Assembly (NCBI GenBank): GCA_044370205.1
Contig: JBILVW010000001.1
Span: forward strand, 1 to 47,521
Direction: 5' to 3'
Length of the DNA: 47,521 nucleotides
Source: Pirellulales bacterium
Lineage (GTDB): Bacteria > Planctomycetota > Planctomycetia > Pirellulales > UBA1268
Positions 123 through 47,468 of the stretch are shown one piece after another; the first letter of the stretch is position 1; every line of letters begins with the position of its first letter. The notes under the pieces were generated by a model. That model ran no database searches. It was not told the origin of the DNA and saw only the letters and a program-made list of their open reading frames with translations. A program made the position numbers and the translations under genes.

Positions 123-263
123 CATACAAGCCCCCATGCGCAAGCAGGGGGATCATGCGGCCGCAAGCAGAGTGATCGGCGCGCCGGTTGAAGCAGCGCG
201 GATTATCCCCCGGCTTGCGCCTGGGGGCTTGTATGGGAAGGTCGCGAGCCTGGGGGCTTTTAT
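123..263. repeat. Family-1 GC-hairpin (REP-like) cluster: forward unit 123-154, inverted unit 201-236, partial inverted unit 244-263
   Basis: catacaagCCCCCatgcGCAAgcaGGGGGatc (123-154) and its near reverse complement gattatCCCCCggcTTGCgccTGGGGGcttgtatgg (201-236). Same unit type as at 9011-9372, 10282-10368, 20128-20295, 40950-41175, 43613-43836 and 47262-47468. Confidence 0.85.
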
Positions 264-1303
264 CCCAGCTGCGCGTGGGCTTCGAGGAGCAACTCTTCGG
301 TCTCGCTCCACCCGATGCAGCCGTCGGTGATCGACACGCCGTAGGCCAGCTTCGAACGGTCGCTCGTCGCCGGCTGGCTGCCGGCGTTGATGTTGCTCTC
401 GAGCATCAGCCCCACGATCGACCGATCCCCCTCCACCCGCTGGGCGAGCACGTCCCGCCACACGATCGACTGGCGGCGGTGGTCCTTGCCCGAATTGGCG
501 TGGCTGCAATCGACGATCACGCGGGGCGGCAGGCCGGCCGCCTCGAGCCGCTTCCGGGCCTCCTGCATGATCTCCGGCGAATAGTTCGAGCCACTCCGGC
601 CGCCACGGAGCATGAGCACGCCCCAGGGATTGCCCGTGGTGGAGACGACCGCCGTGCCACCGTCGTTGTCGATGCCCAGGAAGCTGTGGGGCGTGCGGGC
701 CGCCTGCATCGCATCGACCGCCGCCTGCAGCGAGCCGTCGGTGGAGTTCTTGAAGCCCACCGGCATCGAGAGGCCGCTGGCCATCTGGCGGTGCGTGGGG
801 CTCTCGGTCGTTCGGGCCCCGATCGCCCCCAGCACGATCGTGTCGGCGATGTATTGCGGCGTGATCGGCTCCAGGAATTCCGTGGCCGTGGAGAGGCCCA
901 TGCTGCCGATCTCGATCAGCAGGCCGCGGGCGATCCGCAGGCCCGTGGCCACGTCGAACGTGTCGTCGAGGTGCGGATCGTTGATCAGGCCCTTCCAGCC
1001 CACCGTCGTCCGTGGCTTCTCGAAATAGACCCGCATGATCACGAGCAGCCGGTCGGCCACCCGGTCAGCCAGCTGCTTGAGCCGGCCGGCGTAGTCGCGG
1101 GCGGCGTCGAGATCGTGGATCGAGCAGGGCCCCACCACCGCCATCACCCGCGGGTCGGCGCCGGCGAGCACCTGCTCCACGGCGTGGCGGCCCGCCACGA
1201 TCGTGGCCCGGGCGGCGTCGTCGAGCGGCAGCAGGTTGCACAGCCGCGACGGCGGCACGAGCGACTCCAGGCTCTTGATGCGTAGGTTGGATGTGGCGAG
1301 CAT
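260..1303 (-). CDS. aroG: 3-deoxy-7-phosphoheptulonate (DAHP) synthase, class I-alpha
   Basis: 347-aa ORF carrying the class I DAHP synthase signature EKPRTTVGWKGLINDP, plus IVDCSHANS and GLMLESN motifs. Full length for the family. Confidence 0.93.
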   Translation of the reverse strand: MLATSNLRIKSLESLVPPSRLCNLLPLDDAARATIVAGRHAVEQVLAGADPRVMAVVGPCSIHDLDAARDYAGRLKQLADRVADRLLVIMRVYFEKPRTTVGWKGLINDPHLDDTFDVATGLRIARGLLIEIGSMGLSTATEFLEPITPQYIADTIVLGAIGARTTESPTHRQMASGLSMPVGFKNSTDGSLQAAVDAMQAARTPHSFLGIDNDGGTAVVSTTGNPWGVLMLRGGRSGSNYSPEIMQEARKRLEAAGLPPRVIVDCSHANSGKDHRRQSIVWRDVLAQRVEGDRSIVGLMLESNINAGSQPATSDRSKLAYGVSITDGCIGWSETEELLLEAHAQLG

Positions 1304-1309
1304 CCCACA

Positions 1310-1315
1310 ACTTTA
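1310..1315 (-). promoter_or_regulatory. -10-like hexamer TAAAGT, 6 nt upstream of the aroG ATG (possible leaderless or very short leader transcript)
   Basis: Reverse strand reads gtcgggTAAAGTtgtgggATG. Same hexamer-to-ATG spacing as TAGAAT at 38953-38958. Confidence 0.25.
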
Positions 1316-1361
1316 CCCGACAAATCCGCCGCGCGCAGGCCTCATAGTGCGGGAGCCGACG

Positions 1362-1469
1362 GAATCGGCGAAAGCTCGAGGAGCATTGGGAACTTTCGAC
1401 CTGTCAGGCAAGGCAGCTTCGCAGGTCGTGAAAGGAGAAAGTTTCCACGCGACGAGACTTTTGCCGTTC
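1362..1469 (-). repeat. Family-3 structured hairpin element, copy 1 (long central helix)
   Basis: Reverse strand: GAACGGCAAAAGtCTCG-TCGCG-TGGAAACTTTC...GAAAGTTCCCA-ATGCTCCT-CGAGCTTTCGCCGaTTC. Same outer arms and internal loop as copies at 37257-37335 and 38838-38903. Confidence 0.8.
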
Positions 1470-1496
1470 CGGCGGCGGTGCCGACGTGGCATTTGA

Positions 1497-3237
<1,741 letters not shown>

Positions 3238-3262
3238 TCGCTCAGCGGTTGGCGCCGCCTCA

Positions 3263-3392
3263 GGGCTACCCATGCCATGTCGCCGGACGTTCGCTGCGCC
3301 CATCCTGGGCTCCGCTCTCTCGATGCTGCCTGCGCTTCGGCATCCATGCCTGCGCTGGTCAGCAACGCCGACGCCACGGCACGGGTAGCCCC
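3263..3392 (+). repeat. Family-2 element (about 130 bp, terminal inverted repeats), copy A
   Basis: Ends GGGCTACCCATGCC...GGCACGGGTAGCCC are reverse complements. The interior aligns with copies at 3433-3560, 13636-13767 and 30685-30825. Confidence 0.85.
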
Positions 3393-3432
3393 GAGGCTTC
3401 CTCTTCAGATTCGCAGGGGGAGGCGAGGGGCC

Positions 3433-3560
3433 GGGGCTGCCCATGCCCCGGGAGTCGGCGTTGGCGGCGAGCGGAGCCATGGATGGCGGAGCGAAGACGC
3501 CATCGAGTGAGCGAAGGGCAGGATGCCCGTAGCGAACGTCCGGCGACGGGGCGTGGGCAG
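3433..3560 (-). repeat. Family-2 element, copy B (inverted relative to copy A)
   Basis: GGGGCTGCCCATGCCCC...GGGGCGTGGGCAG termini. Interior carries AGCGAA three times at about 21-nt spacing. The reverse complement aligns with copy A over most of its length. Confidence 0.85.
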
Positions 3561-9010: not shown

Positions 9011-9372
9011 CCCCGTCGAACCGGGGATGCAGGATCACAACACGCCCTCGCGTCGAATAAAAGCCCCCAGGCGCGAGCCGGGGGATCGCCTTCCCATACA
9101 AGCCCCCGGCGCAAGCCGGGGGATCGCCTCCTCATAGAAGCCCCCAGGCGCAAGCCGGGGGATCGCCTCCTCATAGAAGCCCCCAGGCGCGAGCCGGGGG
9201 ATATCTGGCATGGAGGCCGCATTGATCCCCCTGCTTGCGCATGGGGGCTTGTATTGGAAAGTCGAAAGGAAGCCCCCAGGCGCAAGCCGGGGGATCGCCT
9301 TCTCATAGAAGCCCCCGGCGCAAGCCGGGGGATGCTGGACGGAACGTCCAGCCAGCAAGCCGGGGGATCGCC
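9011..9372. repeat. Family-1 GC-hairpin array, about 9 units (largest in the window)
   Basis: Tandem units aagCCCCCaGGCGCAAGCCGGGGGatcgcctcctcatag with 38-39 nt period (9061-9203). One inverted unit at 9224-9256 forms a doublet with the unit ending at 9203. More forward units at 9270-9335 and a partial unit at 9352-9372. Confidence 0.9.
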
Positions 9373-19356: not shown

Positions 19357-19486
19357 AGCAATGTGAGGCTCGGCATCCTCACGCCGACCTGCTCGCCTCC
19401 CGTCTCCGGGTTCTCACACCGTCGCTTTCCGCGGTGGTCATTCGCGGGCCCAGCGTGCGATACTCCCGGCCGCCGCACGGAGGCGA

Positions 19487-20127: not shown

Positions 20128-20295
20128 CATCCCCCGGCTTGCGGTCGGGCTCGCGCCCGACATCCCCCGGCTTGCGGTCGGGCTCGCGCCCGACATCCCC
20201 CGGCTTGCGCCTGGGGGCTTCCTTTCGTCTTTCCAATACAAGCCCCCAGGCGGAAGCCTTTCCAATACAAGCCCCCAGGCGGAAGCCGGGGGATC
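20128..20295. repeat. Family-1 hairpin cluster immediately downstream of the ECF sigma stop
   Basis: Two perfect 33-nt units catcccccggcttgcggtcgggctcgcgcccga (20128-20160, 20161-20193). One inverted canonical unit (20194-20222). Two forward units tttccaatacaagcccccaggcggaagcc (20230-20295). Confidence 0.88.
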
Positions 20296-30626: not shown

Positions 30627-30684
30627 GCACCGCCCCTTCAGCGTCCCTCCAGTAACGGTCGCGAGCGGTAGCCCACACTACGCC

Positions 30685-30825
30685 GTGAGGGGCTGCCCAT
30701 GCCCCAGGAGCCGGCGTATGCCGCCGAGCGCAGCCAGGATGGCGGAGCGAAGGCGGCATCCGAGCGAGCGAAGAACAGGATGTTCGTAGCGAGCGTCCGG
30801 CGACGGGGCGTGGGCAACCCCTCAC
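30685..30825 (-). repeat. Family-2 element, copy D
   Basis: GTGAGGGGCTGCCCATGCCCC...GGGGCGTGGGCAACCCCTCAC termini. Interior has CAGGATG twice and AGCGA(A/G) three times at 21-nt spacing. Lies between the efp stop and the convergent gene stop at 30863. Confidence 0.85.
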
Positions 30826-30862
30826 TCCCACCACAGGCGGTCGACCCGCTGAGGACTAGAAA

Positions 30863-36885: not shown

Positions 36886-37074
36886 GGACGTCCGCCGGCC
36901 GCTGGGGTGCTGGAGGGAAACGCTGGGCAAGGCCGCATCCGGGGCGTCGAGAACGCGCGGTGGACCGCTCCTGAAGGTATGCTCGCGCCCGCCGGCCGGT
37001 CAAAGGCCTCTTGCCCGCCCGCCGCGGCACGCCACTGCCGGCCGGCCCCTCCGATCGTTACGATTGATGCACAC

Positions 37075-37147
37075 GCGCCCGTAGCTCAATGGATAGAGCA
37101 TCGGTCTTCGGAACCGAGGGTTGCAGGTTCGAGTCCTGCCGGGCGTA
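37075..37147 (+). tRNA. tRNA-Arg (anticodon UCG)
   Basis: Hand-folded cloverleaf. Acceptor GCGCCCG/CGGGCGT, D stem GCTC/GAGC, anticodon stem TCGGT/ACCGA with loop CT-TCG-GA, T arm GCAGG-TTCGAGT-CCTGC. 73 nt, CCA not encoded. Confidence 0.93.
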
Positions 37148-37206
37148 CTGAAAGCTGTCCAGTGGCGGAGCGAGGCCCGAAGGGATCGCGACGCCGAAAA
37201 GCAGCC

Positions 37207-37232
37207 TGCAGGTTCGAGTCCTGCCGGGCGTA
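37207..37232 (+). repeat. 26-bp exact duplicate of the tRNA-Arg 3' end (T arm plus acceptor 3' strand), att-like
   Basis: tgcaggttcgagtcctgccgggcgta occurs at 37122-37147 (inside the tRNA) and again at 37207-37232. No matching 5' half, so it is not a second tRNA. Confidence 0.9.
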
Positions 37233-37256
37233 TTCCTTCCAAAGCCCGCGCCGGCT

Positions 37257-37335
37257 CGGGGGCGGTACAAGTCTCGTCGCGATGGACCTCGCGGACTCGG
37301 TCCAAATGCTCCTCGAGCTTGCACCGACCCCCTCG
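37257..37335 (+). repeat. Family-3 structured hairpin element, copy 2
   Basis: CGGGGGCGGTACAAGtCTCG-TCGCGA-TGGACC-tcgcggactc-GGTCCA-AATGCTCCT-CGAGCTTGCACCGaCCCCC. Confidence 0.8.
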
Positions 37336-37371
37336 CCTCGTCGTATCGGGCGGGCAGTCGAAGGCGGACGG

Positions 37372-37713
37372 TTACTTTCCCGGCCCGAGGCTGCCGGTGG
37401 GCTCGCCCTGGTCGTCGAAGAATTCGACGCTGCCGGTGCGGCGATCGGGCCGCGTGCCGATCGCGATGGAATCGACGCCGGCTGCGTCCTTGATCTCGAT
37501 TCGGCCGCCACCGTCGCCCACCACGCGGCCGAGATGCACGAGCACCGTGCCGTCGGTGCCCGTCACGATCAGCTCGCGGCAGACGATCTGGCCCGTGTCG
37601 AGGCTATCGACTCGGCTGGCCCGGTCTTCGTCGGCCACGATCGCCGCCCGCACCGCCATCCCGATGGCAAGAAACAAAAGCGGATACACGGTCCAGCGTT
37701 CACGGCTCGTCAT
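37372..37713 (-). CDS. hypothetical membrane-anchored protein
   Basis: 113-aa ORF with an N-terminal TM helix (VYPLLFLAIGMAVRAAIV). Sits downstream of the thioredoxin-like gene on the same strand. No homology recognised. Confidence 0.5.
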   Translation of the reverse strand: MTSRERWTVYPLLFLAIGMAVRAAIVADEDRASRVDSLDTGQIVCRELIVTGTDGTVLVHLGRVVGDGGGRIEIKDAAGVDSIAIGTRPDRRTGSVEFFDDQGEPTGSLGPGK

Positions 37714-37821
37714 CGAGCAGGTTCTCTCATTCGCGTTCGGGGAGGCGACGGGATCGGTGCGAGGATCGCGAGCGTGGCGTGCGGCCGCCAGCGAGCGAAC
37801 TCGTACCGTTCCGTCGCCGGC

Positions 37822-38448
37822 TCACTCACCGTGCAACTGACGCAGGCGGCCCGAGAGCCGGAGGATGAGCTGCACCCGCTCGAACTGCTCGAGCCAGTCG
37901 GCGGTCGTGGCGGCCAATGCGTCGGCCAGCGGCGGGGCCGCGCCGCTGGCGCAGGTGTCGCCCAGCTCCATCGCAGCGGAGGCGCGGTAGGCAGAGAGCG
38001 TGCGATCGCCGTAGAAGAGCACGGGCGTGAAGTCTTCGCTGAAGAAGGCCGCCGTGGGCACCCGTTGCCCGCCGCATACCTTGAGATGGGCAGCGATCTC
38101 GGGGAGCGCGTCGCGGTCGAGGAACCGCAGGTCGATCGCCTTCGTCTCCGCCGCGAAGGCGGCGAAGATCGGGCACTGGTTCACGCAGTCGCCACACCAC
38201 GCCCCGGCGAGCACGAGCACCGGCATCCGCCGCTTGAACGAGGCGAGCAGCTGTTTCTGCGCCGCCGTAAGCGTCACCCGGCCCCGCACACCCTCCCACC
38301 GCGTCCGCTGGTCGGGTGTGGCATGGTTCGCGAGAAAGGCGTCGTAGGGGAGCGCCTGGGCGAAGGCGGCCGACCAGGCGTCGGCGGTGGGCGGCGCTCC
38401 TGCGCCGGCGATCGGCGGGGTGGTGCGGATGGTGGTGGTGGCGGACAT
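37822..38448 (-). CDS. thioredoxin-fold protein (WCGDC motif)
   Basis: 208 aa from the ATG at 38448. VLVLAGAWCGDCVNQCP is a CxxC redox motif in a thioredoxin-like context. Confidence 0.7.
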   Translation of the reverse strand: MSATTTIRTTPPIAGAGAPPTADAWSAAFAQALPYDAFLANHATPDQRTRWEGVRGRVTLTAAQKQLLASFKRRMPVLVLAGAWCGDCVNQCPIFAAFAAETKAIDLRFLDRDALPEIAAHLKVCGGQRVPTAAFFSEDFTPVLFYGDRTLSAYRASAAMELGDTCASGAAPPLADALAATTADWLEQFERVQLILRLSGRLRQLHGE

Positions 38449-38837
38449 GACGAGTGCTCCGTGCAAGAGACATGGTTCAAGGGGGGGCCAGGGTTCGCGG
38501 GCCGCATCATATCGGGCTGGCGACAAACTGGAGAAAGTACGGGCAACGCGGCAATTTTTGGCCGCAAAAAATCATGCCAAAACACCCTTGGAACGGCCTT
38601 GACCCGGCCTCTGGGGCATCCCTACTTTCCGCCCCGCCTGAAGGCCATGGGGCGGATCCCACCAGATCAGCCCCCTCGATGTCCGCGGCAGCACGGATGC
38701 TCGCCGCCGACATCGAGTGACCGGCCCTCGGCAGATTGCCGTCCAATCGCTCCCGGAAACGGTCCAGGTTCTCCGCCCCCCTGGTACCTGGGCCGTTCCG
38801 GGGGCCTTTGGGCAGGTCTCTCTCGCGCGCTGCTCGC

Positions 38838-38903
38838 GAACGGCGAAAGTCTCGTCGCGGTGGGCCGCGGCGGCCCAAATGCTCCTCGAGCTTTCGCCGA
38901 TTC
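38838..38903 (+). repeat. Family-3 structured hairpin element, copy 3 (minimal form)
   Basis: GAACGGCGAAAGtCTCG-TCGCGG-TGGGCC-gcggc-GGCCCA-AATGCTCCT-CGAGCTTTCGCCGaTTC. Confidence 0.8.
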
Positions 38904-38952
38904 GCTCGCTCGGCCTGTGGGTGGTGGAAGAGGCGGCGTCGCTCGACGTGCG

Positions 38953-39207: not shown

Positions 39208-40944
39208 ATGTCGACCATGAAGGGGTCGATCGTACTGGGAGCGAGCCTCGACAACGGCCTTTTGCCGCTCACGAAGCCGCGGCCGGCCGTGCAGCGGGCG
39301 GAAAGCGTTACCAGCCTCTCGATCGGGCAGTACCTGATCCGCAGGCTCTCCGATTACGGCATCCGCCACGTGTTCGGCCTGCCGGGCGACTACGTCCTCT
39401 CCTTCTATTCGATGCTGGAGAACAGCCCGCTCGACCTCGTGAACTGCACGCGGGAAGACTGCGCGGGCTTCGCCGCCGACTCCTACGCCCGAGTGAGCGG
39501 CATGGGCGCCGTCTGCGTCACGTACGGCGTCGGCGGACTGTCGCTGGCCAACTCGATCGCCGGCGCCAGCGCCGAGAAGAGCCCCGTCGTGCTGATCTCC
39601 GGCGCGCCCGGCATCGCCGAGCGGGCCGACAACCCCCTGCTCCACCACCGCGTGCGGGAATGGCGGACGCAGCTCGAGGTGTTCGAAAAGATCTGCCTGG
39701 CCAGCGCCGAGATCGTCGATCCGGCCACGGCGTTTCGCGAGATCGACCGGCTCCTCGACATCTGCCATCGCCTCAAGGGTCCGGTCTACATCGAACTGCC
39801 CCGCGACATGGTGGCCGTCGTGCCCGATCAGATCCGCCCGTTCGTGCCGCCGCCGCGGGAGAGCGACCCCGACGCGCTCGCCGAGGCGGTCGCGGAGGCG
39901 GTCGCCCGGATCGAGGCGGCGAAGCGGCCCGTGATCGTCGCCGGCGTCGAACTGCACCGCTACGGCCTGCAGGCCGACACGATCGCCCTGGCCGAGGCGG
40001 CGAGGCTGCCGATCGCCGCCACGATGCTCGCCAAGAGCGTGATCAGCGAGGTGCACCCGCTCTACATCGGTCTCTACGAAGGCGCGATGGGCCGCAAGGA
40101 GGTGACCGACTTCGTCGAGGAGAGCGACTGCATCATCCTGCTCGGCACGCTGCTCACCGACATCGACCTCGGCATCTTTACCGCCAAGCTCGACCCCACC
40201 CGCACGATCTTCGCCACCAGCTCCGAGCTGCGGATCAGCCACCATCACTACCACGACGTGCTGCTCGACGACTTCATCCGTGGAGTCGCCGCGGCGCGGC
40301 CGACGGCGGCGCAGCGGCCGCTGCCCCCCGGGCCCGAGGCGGCCGCGGGCGAGTTCACGCTGGTGCCCGACGCACCCCTCACGACCACCCGGCTCGTGCG
40401 GCGGCTCGACGAGTCGCTCGACGATCGCACGCTCGTGGTGGCCGACGTGGGCGACGCGCTCTTCGCGTCGAGCGAACTGGTGATCCGCGGGCAGACGGAG
40501 TTCATCGCCCCGGCCTACTACACCTCGATGGGCTTCGCCACGCCGGCGGCGCTCGGGGCGAAGATGGCGCGACCCGATCTCAAGGTCGTGGCACTGGTGG
40601 GCGACGGCGCCTTTCAGATGACGGGCATGGAGCTCTCCACGATCGTGCGTCGCGGCCTGCCCGTCGTCGTGATCGTGCTCGACAACAAGGGCTACGGCAC
40701 CGAGCGGCTGATTCACGAAGGAAGCTTCAACGACATCAACCCCTGGCAGTATCAGCTTCTGCCGCAGGTGCTCGGCGGTGGCACGGGCTACGAGGTCCGC
40801 ACGGAGGGTGAGTTCGACGCGGCGCTCGCGCGGGCCCTTGCCGACACGTCGGGCATGAGCATCATCCGGGCCCACATCGGCGTCGACGACCGCAGCGTCA
40901 CGCTCGACCGGCTCGCCGCCGGCTTGGCCCGCCGCGTGAAATGA
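39208..40944 (+). CDS. thiamine-diphosphate-dependent 2-keto-acid decarboxylase (indolepyruvate/phenylpyruvate/pyruvate decarboxylase family)
   Basis: 578 aa. ATG preceded by GAGGAGGTGACCT. N-terminal Pyr domain (HVFGLPGDY...NCTREDCAGFAADSYAR) and TPP-binding motif GDGAFQMTGMELST...NN. Substrate not assignable from sequence alone. Confidence 0.85.
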   Translation: MSTMKGSIVLGASLDNGLLPLTKPRPAVQRAESVTSLSIGQYLIRRLSDYGIRHVFGLPGDYVLSFYSMLENSPLDLVNCTREDCAGFAADSYARVSGMGAVCVTYGVGGLSLANSIAGASAEKSPVVLISGAPGIAERADNPLLHHRVREWRTQLEVFEKICLASAEIVDPATAFREIDRLLDICHRLKGPVYIELPRDMVAVVPDQIRPFVPPPRESDPDALAEAVAEAVARIEAAKRPVIVAGVELHRYGLQADTIALAEAARLPIAATMLAKSVISEVHPLYIGLYEGAMGRKEVTDFVEESDCIILLGTLLTDIDLGIFTAKLDPTRTIFATSSELRISHHHYHDVLLDDFIRGVAAARPTAAQRPLPPGPEAAAGEFTLVPDAPLTTTRLVRRLDESLDDRTLVVADVGDALFASSELVIRGQTEFIAPAYYTSMGFATPAALGAKMARPDLKVVALVGDGAFQMTGMELSTIVRRGLPVVVIVLDNKGYGTERLIHEGSFNDINPWQYQLLPQVLGGGTGYEVRTEGEFDAALARALADTSGMSIIRAHIGVDDRSVTLDRLAAGLARRVK

Positions 40945-40949
40945 CCCGG

Positions 40950-41175
40950 CCGCGGCTGCCGCCGCGGGATCCCCTCGCTCGCGCTCGGGGCTTGTATGAG
41001 GCGATACAAGCCCCAGGGCGCGAGCCCGGGGATCCCCTTCCCATACAAGCCCCAGGGCGCAAGCCCGGGGATCGCCTTCCCATACAAGCCCCAGGGCGCA
41101 AGCCCGGGGATCCCCTTCCCATATAAGCCCCAGGGCGCAAGCCCGGGGATCCCCGCCGCGGAAGCGGCGGCAACG
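40950..41175. repeat. Family-1 hairpin array occupying almost the entire convergent intergenic spacer
   Basis: CCGCGGC-tgcc-GCCGCGG (40950-40967). Inverted unit (40967-40998). Four forward 39-nt units atacaagCCCCaGGGCGCAAGCCCGGGGatccccttccc (41002-41153). Terminal GCCGC-GGAA-GCGGCggcaacg (41154-41175). Confidence 0.9.
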
Positions 41176-47261: not shown

Positions 47262-47468
47262 CCGACGCTTCCGCGTCGGGATCCCCCGGCTTGCGCCTGG
47301 GGGCTTCTATCGACACAAGCCCCGAGCGGAAGCGAGGGGATCCCGTCCACACAAGCCCCGAGCGGAAGCGAGGGGATCCCGTCCACGCAAGCCCCGAGCG
47401 GAAGCGAGGGGATCCCGTCCACACAAGCCCTGAGCGGAAGCGAGGGGATCCCGCGGCAGAAGCCGCGG
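47262..47468. repeat. Family-1 hairpin array, 36-nt-period variant
   Basis: CCGACGC-ttcc-GCGTCGG (47262-47279). Inverted canonical unit (47280-47310). Four forward units acacaagCCCCGAGCGGAAGCGAGGGGatcccgtcc (47313-47452). CCGCGGC-agaa-GCCGCGG (47451-47468). Confidence 0.9.

Follow-up and report, generated by a model that had tools for sequence, protein, structure and literature searches.

Rhodopirellula baltica carries families of GTAG REPs together with many tyrosine transposases, and a REP type with a CGTC foot is characterized by an 8–9-bp stem and a CCA tail (PMC3733652). Class 3 HuH-Y1 genes occur mainly in Planctomycetes and are flanked by atypical hairpins that do not follow the GTAG pattern (Quentin et al, 2018; PMC6006769); hairpins of the class 3 type amount to as many as ~600 copies per host genome, as shown for Solibacter usitatus, an acidobacterium (PMC6006769). 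The 47,521-nucleotide stretch of Pirellulales DNA analyzed here (the window) contains copies of an apparently undescribed, structurally well-defined repeat of Pirellulales (family 3), which resembles several such systems. It has in common with REP, BIME, and REPIN elements (with RAYT, that is TnpA_REP, of the HUH-Y1 type) that high-copy intergenic palindromes lie in either orientation, often near the 3′ ends of genes and without target-site duplication, that the hairpins are long and imperfect, and that they form mosaics with, or are nested in, other types of repeats. It is also like the class 3 HuH-Y1 hairpins, which are mainly planctomycetal, atypical structures without GTAG and can number hundreds per genome (PMC6006769), and like ERIC/IRU of Enterobacteria and Correia/CREE of Neisseria, imperfect intergenic palindromes of ~100–150 nt with size variants from internal insertions, which are present or absent between strains and are transcribed as hairpins within mRNAs. 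With integron attC sites it shares an imperfect palindrome of variable length; attC is read as a folded single strand in which unpaired or extrahelical bases and structure define the site. Taken as a whole, family 3 is best explained as a non-autonomous palindromic intergenic mobile repeat (of the REP/REPIN/MITE kind) of freshwater Pirellulales, presumably moved in trans and most likely by an HUH-Y1 route; the probability of this reading is put at about 0.72.

Three copies with a common bulged-hairpin architecture had been recognized in the window by the first-pass annotation, and their positions and architecture were borne out by the sequence, by 16-mer statistics, and by fold z-scores. Copies 1 to 3 share, exactly, the strings AAGTCTCGTCGCG and AATGCTCCTCGAGCTT; a search for the 16-mer with up to three mismatches returned five matches (three of them exact) versus 0.35 expected, a number that none of 100 shuffles reached. 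Genes were called with our own caller, using GC3 and a codon-usage score, and then checked against Pfam. Copy 1 (1355..1475, minus strand), the long form, was located from its sequence, folds with −50.6 kcal/mol (z = −4.96), and scores 64.2–68.5 bits with covariance model R1 at 1345–1486. It contains ~45 nt of extra sequence at its apex and occupies the divergent spacer between aroG (DAHP synthase; 260–1303, minus strand) and pyrG (CTP synthase; 1587–3212, plus strand), both identified by Pfam. Copy 2 (37249..37343, plus strand) is the canonical form, with a GGTACAAG arm and a GGACC...GGTCC apex, scores 96.7 bits on the plus strand versus 11.2 bits on the minus strand, and lies in the convergent spacer between a tRNA-Arg (37075–37148, plus strand; Rfam) and the stop codon of a small gene (37372–37713, minus strand). 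Copy 3 (38831..38909, plus strand; GGCGAAAG arm, GGGCCGCGGCGGCCC apex; 86.1 bits) was found in the divergent spacer between a thioredoxin-like gene (Thioredoxin_9; 37822–38526, minus strand) and a TPP-enzyme gene (39208–40944, plus strand), which were both assigned by Pfam. The three are joined by a fourth, diverged copy at 37828..37734 (minus strand; 35.5 bits, E = 7e-6) that had been overlooked. It belongs to sub-family B, whose loops read CTCGC / CGCTCG, and takes up the spacer between the thioredoxin-like gene, directly at whose stop codon it begins, and the next co-directional gene. Apart from these copies, the 3′ end of tRNA-Arg is duplicated over 26 nt (TGCAGGTTCGAGTCCTGCCGGGCGTA) at 37207–37232, 59 nt past the end of the tRNA and 24 nt before copy 2, where Rfam reports a partial tRNA (model positions 40–71); the relatives L104 and L105 are devoid of the entire 233-nt segment that holds this duplicate, which could be the att-site remnant of an integrated element.

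The full element spans ~95–130 nt (the consensus ~95 nt, copy 1 ~125 nt) and is longer than initially described. Its consensus reads CCGGCTCGGGGGCGG-(T/C)A(C/A/G)AAG-T-CTCG-TCGCG(GT)-[apical hairpin]-(A)AATGCTCCT-CGAG-CTT(G/T/C)C(A/G)CCGACCCCCTCGCCT(C/A)C, the ends CCGGCTCGGGGGCGG and CCGACCCCCTCGCCT forming an imperfect inverted repeat. The apex is modular: it consists of one of three hairpins (GGACCTCGAAGACTCGGTCC, GGGCCGCGGCGGCCC, or GGGCGAGGATACGCCC) or, in copy 1, of a long insert. A longer variant has one more, optional hairpin, GTCCGCCGCTCCAACGGCGGA, which separates the outer helix from CTCG, and one sub-family has the other loops (CTCGC / CGCTCG). The outer-helix strand of copy 1, originally given as GGCGAAAG, is in fact GGCAAAAG, resulting in an A·C mismatch at position 4; the same mismatch, which is G·U on the opposite strand, is found in most copies and across sub-families. 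The CTCG/CGAG helix and the loops are nearly constant, though the seed pattern imposes this for most copies. In the 14 copies recovered by the model only, the loops show scattered single substitutions and are conserved about as well as the CTCG/CGAG helix, while arms, apex, and flanks are more variable than either. The loops had been called invariant, which, given these substitutions and the CTCGC / CGCTCG sub-family, holds nearly but not strictly. A conserved GGTG precedes the element by ~6–9 nt, and the filled sites disagree on whether it originates from the target or from the element.

How widespread the family is was assessed by scanning one genome per species for exact occurrences of CTCGTCGCG-N(12-42)-AATGCTCCTCGAG. 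At least 103 stretches matched; the 80 loci listed represent at least 31 species-level planctomycete MAGs, and the richest MAG had at least 16 copies. Among the matches listed, all lay in planctomycete MAGs (Pirellulales, Planctomycetia), except for two chance matches, one of them in Nocardioides; most of the data come from fragmented MAGs. In the fetched loci (657 kb), model R1 detected 118 copies, including 14 outside the seed-pattern selection. The element pattern had no match in viral contigs. When the window was searched against Rfam (Rfam 15), only tRNA-Arg reached the gathering score and nothing relevant for the element appeared even at E ≤ 10. Several MAGs labeled 'Candidatus Kuenenia' (L016, L017, L033, L036, L039–L041, and others) carry the element in loci of 65–75% G+C. 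Because the G+C content of Kuenenia is ~41%, these records look mislabeled.

Folding each of copies 1 to 3 gave a bulged hairpin (z-scores between −3.5 and −5.0), and none of 200 shuffles folded as well. Across the 118 model-aligned copies, 97.3% of the cells were paired, compared with 88.5% after shuffling and 28–45% when the partners were slid. Changes on both sides were observed in 8 of 10 outer-helix pairs (165 cells), which none of 500 shuffles reached; examples of covarying pairs are CG 78 / UA 34 and AU 47 / CG 37 / GC 31. The covariation in the outer helices, already proposed by the first-pass annotation, is therefore real. However, constraints on pairing would act on an RNA, on a hairpin of single-stranded DNA, and on mobile-palindrome arms alike. 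The strand chosen initially is not the one favored by folding energy: for 101 of the 106 distinct copies, folding the opposite strand gave the more stable hairpin (mean −50.3 versus −44.6 kcal/mol). Because G·U pairs occur on both strands (134 versus 167), the strand is nevertheless not settled.

Copies of the family have been gained or lost at single sites between closely related genomes. The Thioredoxin_9 protein was used to gather 80 orthologous loci (66–90% identity), of which only seven contained family copies (11 matches in total). At this locus the closest relatives are L104 and L105, which are ~90% identical to the window. Copy 2 is confined to the window, the site being without a copy in both L104 and L105. 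Copy 3 is also found in L105, in diverged form and with compensatory changes in the arms, and L104 holds a different repeat at the site. For copy 4, the site is filled in the window and in L104, and empty in L105, where it reads TGA-CGC-ATG. A further site, directly after the stop codon of an FHA-domain gene (36211^36212), is empty in the window and filled in L104 and L105 by different sub-families. The junction between the thioredoxin-like gene and the next gene measures 1–7 nt in ~35 of 76 relatives and is made up of 25–157 nt of unrelated, hairpin-rich inserts in the others; therefore, the short junction looks ancestral and the site appears to have been invaded repeatedly. A comparison of L079 with L060 as a clean empty site was dropped, as a TGCTCCTC remnant is kept in L079; for this reason, deletion may account for some of the absences, with the site having been occupied before. 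The sibling MAG contig L004 (JBILWX010000297.1; 3 kb, ~98% identical) joins window positions 763–3407 directly to the reverse of 36970–37339, and the breakpoint coincides with the repeat end CCCCTCGCCT; either the repeat mediated a rearrangement, or the assembly is chimeric at this repeat.

The spacer holding copy 1 gives a similar picture. Contigs encoding exactly the AroG of the window belong to the same species and have an identical spacer. In relatives whose AroG is 94% (L186, L187) or 89% (L188) identical, copy 1 is absent from the pyrG–aroG spacer even when the model is run unfiltered, the spacer is much shorter, and the aroG reading frame has 11 additional codons at its start, with the arrangement TTGGGC-16 nt-TAGAGT-7 nt-ATG (L186:1819–1963 versus window 1304–1360). 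With TAGAGT only 7 nt before the ATG, aroG of the relatives looks leaderless. In the window, that 5′ segment of aroG is replaced by the element and new sequence, and a −10-like TAAAGT is found 6 nt before the new ATG. The fact that the relatives without the copy have a short spacer and a longer aroG N-terminus indicates that copy 1 is a lineage-specific insertion that remodeled the 5′ end of aroG. Judging from the −10-like TAAAGT, copy 1 is probably located upstream of the aroG transcript rather than inside it. Measured from the end first assigned to it (1362), the distance to the aroG ATG (1303) is 58 nt, not 63 nt as first stated. The hairpin upstream of aroG is a copy of a mobile repeat and not a dedicated regulator of this gene.

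The family is multi-copy and dispersed, and its members lie almost always between genes (112 of 120 copies), in either orientation and beside unrelated genes. Between co-directional genes the element is antisense in 35 copies and sense in 26; 16 copies occupy convergent and 12 (12/89) divergent spacers. Orientation relative to the flanking genes is close to random, and many copies start 10–25 nt past a stop codon. Tabulating orientation and downstream genes, as had been proposed, revealed no tie to aroG (26 sense versus 35 antisense, unrelated neighbors). Scanning 138 neighbor genes yielded 209 Pfam families, the most frequent being DUF1501 with a count of five, and neither an enriched pathway nor an enriched transposase family was seen among them. 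DUF1501 is expanded in Planctomycetes. At the copies between 36900 and 39300, neither a T-run terminator nor a sigma-70-like promoter was called; the consensus ends with CCTCCC on one strand and CCGGCG on the other, which is not the form of an intrinsic terminator. Hundreds of copies in random orientation and at random distance to genes had been named beforehand as an outcome that would refute a functional RNA; with the high copy number, the dispersal over many genomes, and the near-random orientation, the functional framing fails. Of the two functions envisaged for the hairpin, a functional RNA directed at aroG is not supported, and a predicted structure-specific protein-binding site is still the best account of the conserved core.

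Traces of the moving activity were sought at the copies and in their surroundings. Direct repeats flanking 72 copies were no longer than in the shuffled control, and the clean filled versus empty junction of copy 4 showed no duplication. In ~1 Mb of loci, motif searches for RAYT, IS200, and class 3 did not return any HUH-Y1-like ORF, and neither a gene flanked by arms of the element nor a longer element with the same ends was found; isolated arms around a gene turned out to be chance GC-rich matches and degenerate copies only. Filled sites contain ~25–35 nt of extra, non-conserved sequence beside the conserved element and, because of this, the mobile unit and its ends are not defined. The presence of three oppositely oriented copies within a 1.7-kb part of the window fits poorly with strictly strand-specific insertion of the IS200/IS605 type.

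A second palindromic family hosts some of the copies in its apex. This family X, another long palindromic repeat (...CTGCCCACGCCCCGTCGCCGGACGCTCGCT...GCGCTCGGCGGCATACGCCGGCTCCTGGGGCATGGGCAG...), is present in the window at 30682–30854 and 3433–3560 (both minus strand) and in many of the fetched loci, and its apex harbors a family-3 copy in about six loci (e.g., L052:1289, L009, L026, L031, L040, and L050). In addition, tandem arrays at 9057–9202, 41004–41154, and 47313–47453 (also 20128–20287) consist of ~3.8–3.9 head-to-tail copies of a 36–39-nt hairpin unit, ATAGAAGCCCCCAGGCGCAAGCCGGGGGATCGCCTCCTC and its variants, with 92–97% matches. Because they contain no spacers, these are not CRISPR arrays. 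Single units of this kind flank family-3 copies in L030 and L040. The octamer TCGCCTCC terminates family-3 copies, family X, and the tandem-array unit alike; it occurs 15 times in the window (e.g., at 3419–3426, 9124–9131, 9163–9170, 19393–19400, and 37741–37748) versus 5.7 expected, which one of 100 shuffles reached, and it may be a junction or cleavage motif common to several repeat families.

Compared with the systems described above, family 3 shares the high copy number, intergenic location, and either orientation of REPs and REPINs. REPs, however, are palindromes of only 20–40 nt with a 5′ GTAG, GT[AG]G, or CGTC foot, and the consensus of family 3 has no GTAG or GT[AG]G foot on either strand. 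CGTC is present inside CTCGTCGCG, but not as the foot of an 8–9-bp stem with a CCA tail. Moreover, the arms are not small palindromes, and therefore the element is not a REP dimer; conservation centers on an asymmetric internal loop. REPs flank a single-copy Y1 (RAYT) gene of their genome, whereas no RAYT adjoining any copy was found in the loci searched. Canonical GTAG REPs do occur in the same spacers of relatives (L105:3963–4031, L105 at ~540, and L112 at ~230–330; e.g., CCGTAGGCCCGTCACTCCGTGACGGGC and GTAGACCGCTTGCTCCGCAAGCGGT), some as inverted pairs, and in L105 the TAG of a GTAG foot doubles as the stop codon of the upstream gene. The class 3 HuH-Y1 hairpins, compared here by description only, differ in being described as weaker and in having a CnGA foot (PMC6006769); a tie between them and family 3 is a lead. 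ERIC/IRU and Correia have TA target duplications and defined terminal repeats, in contrast to the conserved internal loop and the missing duplication of family 3. Integron attC sites come in one orientation, in cassette arrays with an adjacent integrase, and with R/L boxes (GTTRRRY), whereas the family-3 copies are dispersed between housekeeping genes, face either way, and lack these boxes. Terminal inverted repeats are shared with DDE MITEs, target-site duplication is not. Having no GTAG foot, no duplication, and no Rfam match, the family is best filed under bacterial intergenic palindromic mobile repeats.

Several other explanations have to be weighed against a mobile repeat moved in trans. 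A conserved loop framed by covarying helices, in a copy that is on the aroG strand and 51–58 nt upstream of the aroG ATG, would suit a cis-regulatory leader RNA (riboswitch, attenuator, or protein-binding 5′ UTR) controlling aroG. This idea is largely refuted already and retains hardly any credibility, given that relatives with 94% and 89% AroG identity lack copy 1 in the spacer, that the other copies are beside unrelated genes without an enriched pathway, that neither position nor orientation is fixed, the latter being close to random, and that Rfam gave no match at E ≤ 10; the −10-like TAAAGT 6 nt before the ATG likewise suggests, from the sequence only, that the element is upstream of the transcript. 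That the copies are independent genes for small, trans-acting RNAs is just as hard to believe. The many copies of a stable, conserved structure would be expected from such genes, but in the segment 36900–39300 no promoter-like or terminator-like signals accompany the copies, stop codons are touched or overlapped by copies and operon junctions filled by them, the preference for a strand is ambiguous, and individual copies turn over fast.

Less improbable, but still doubtful, is a classical MITE, that is, an internally deleted insertion sequence of the DDE-transposase type moved via its terminal inverted repeats. The whole element is indeed an imperfect inverted repeat with conserved ends (CCGGCTCGGGGGCGG and AGGCGAGGGGGTCGG, the latter being the reverse complement of the 3′ end), and its size, high copy number, and intergenic location are MITE-like; yet target-site duplications are missing, ~1 Mb of sequence contained no longer element with these ends, no transposase family appeared among the neighbors, and the most conserved part is the internal asymmetric loop rather than the termini. 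The strongest of the competing explanations, though unlikely as well, is an RNA hairpin of use to the host that was spread by transposition and kept because, in transcripts, it stabilizes 3′ ends, terminates transcription without a U-tract, or is processed by an RNase, roles that have been proposed for REP, ERIC, and Correia. In its favor, many copies begin 10–25 nt after a stop codon, the hairpin is very stable on both strands (means −44.6 and −50.3 kcal/mol), the core is strongly conserved across species, and in the L105 ortholog of copy 3 the arms have changed in a compensatory way and still pair. Conversely, a T-run or other terminator signature is missing, copies are also found in divergent promoter regions (12/89) and in operon junctions that measure 1–7 nt when empty, and even closely related genomes differ in which sites are occupied. 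Selection for a host function could be an alternative source of near-identical copies across species. Such a function is compatible with the mobile-element explanation and does not exclude it.

If family 3 is a mobile repeat moved in trans, a structure-specific enzyme would recognize its core, that is, the CTCG/CGAG helix together with the asymmetric loop TCGCG(G) / (A)AATGCTCCT. For the arms outside this core and the hairpin at the apex, pairing alone would be required, which would explain that arms and apex covary and are swapped as modules. The intermediate would be a single-stranded hairpin handled by an enzyme of the HUH-Y1 type, either RAYT-like or class 3. Because no target-site duplication was observed, this route is most likely and a cut-and-paste DDE transposase less so. 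Effects on neighboring genes would be by-products of insertion, for instance when a 3′-UTR or an operon spacer gains a stable RNA hairpin, or when a promoter and N-terminus are remodeled as in aroG. A more specific and rather speculative proposal is that the CTCG/CGAG helix and the TCGCG / AATGCTCCT loop, with the A·C (or G·T) mismatch that has been kept, constitute the recognition module of an uncharacterized structure-specific single-strand DNA enzyme, for example, of class 3 HuH-Y1, serving several co-resident families with the TCGCCTCC junction motif. If true, a core recognized by such an enzyme would represent a new REPtron-like system without a GTAG foot.

These results remove a false lead, as the hairpin is not a riboregulator of aroG, and document a repeat family in a phylum whose mobile DNA is poorly studied. 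With clearly filled or empty sites, variants built from modules, and a loop core that is sharply conserved, the family provides a handle for finding the enzyme that moves it. The family also helps to explain the fragmentation and rearrangement of MAGs in freshwater Pirellulales. By inserting, it alters stop codons and operon junctions and, at least in the case of aroG, a promoter and an N-terminus, and thereby contributes regulatory variation to these bacteria, which are abundant in lakes.
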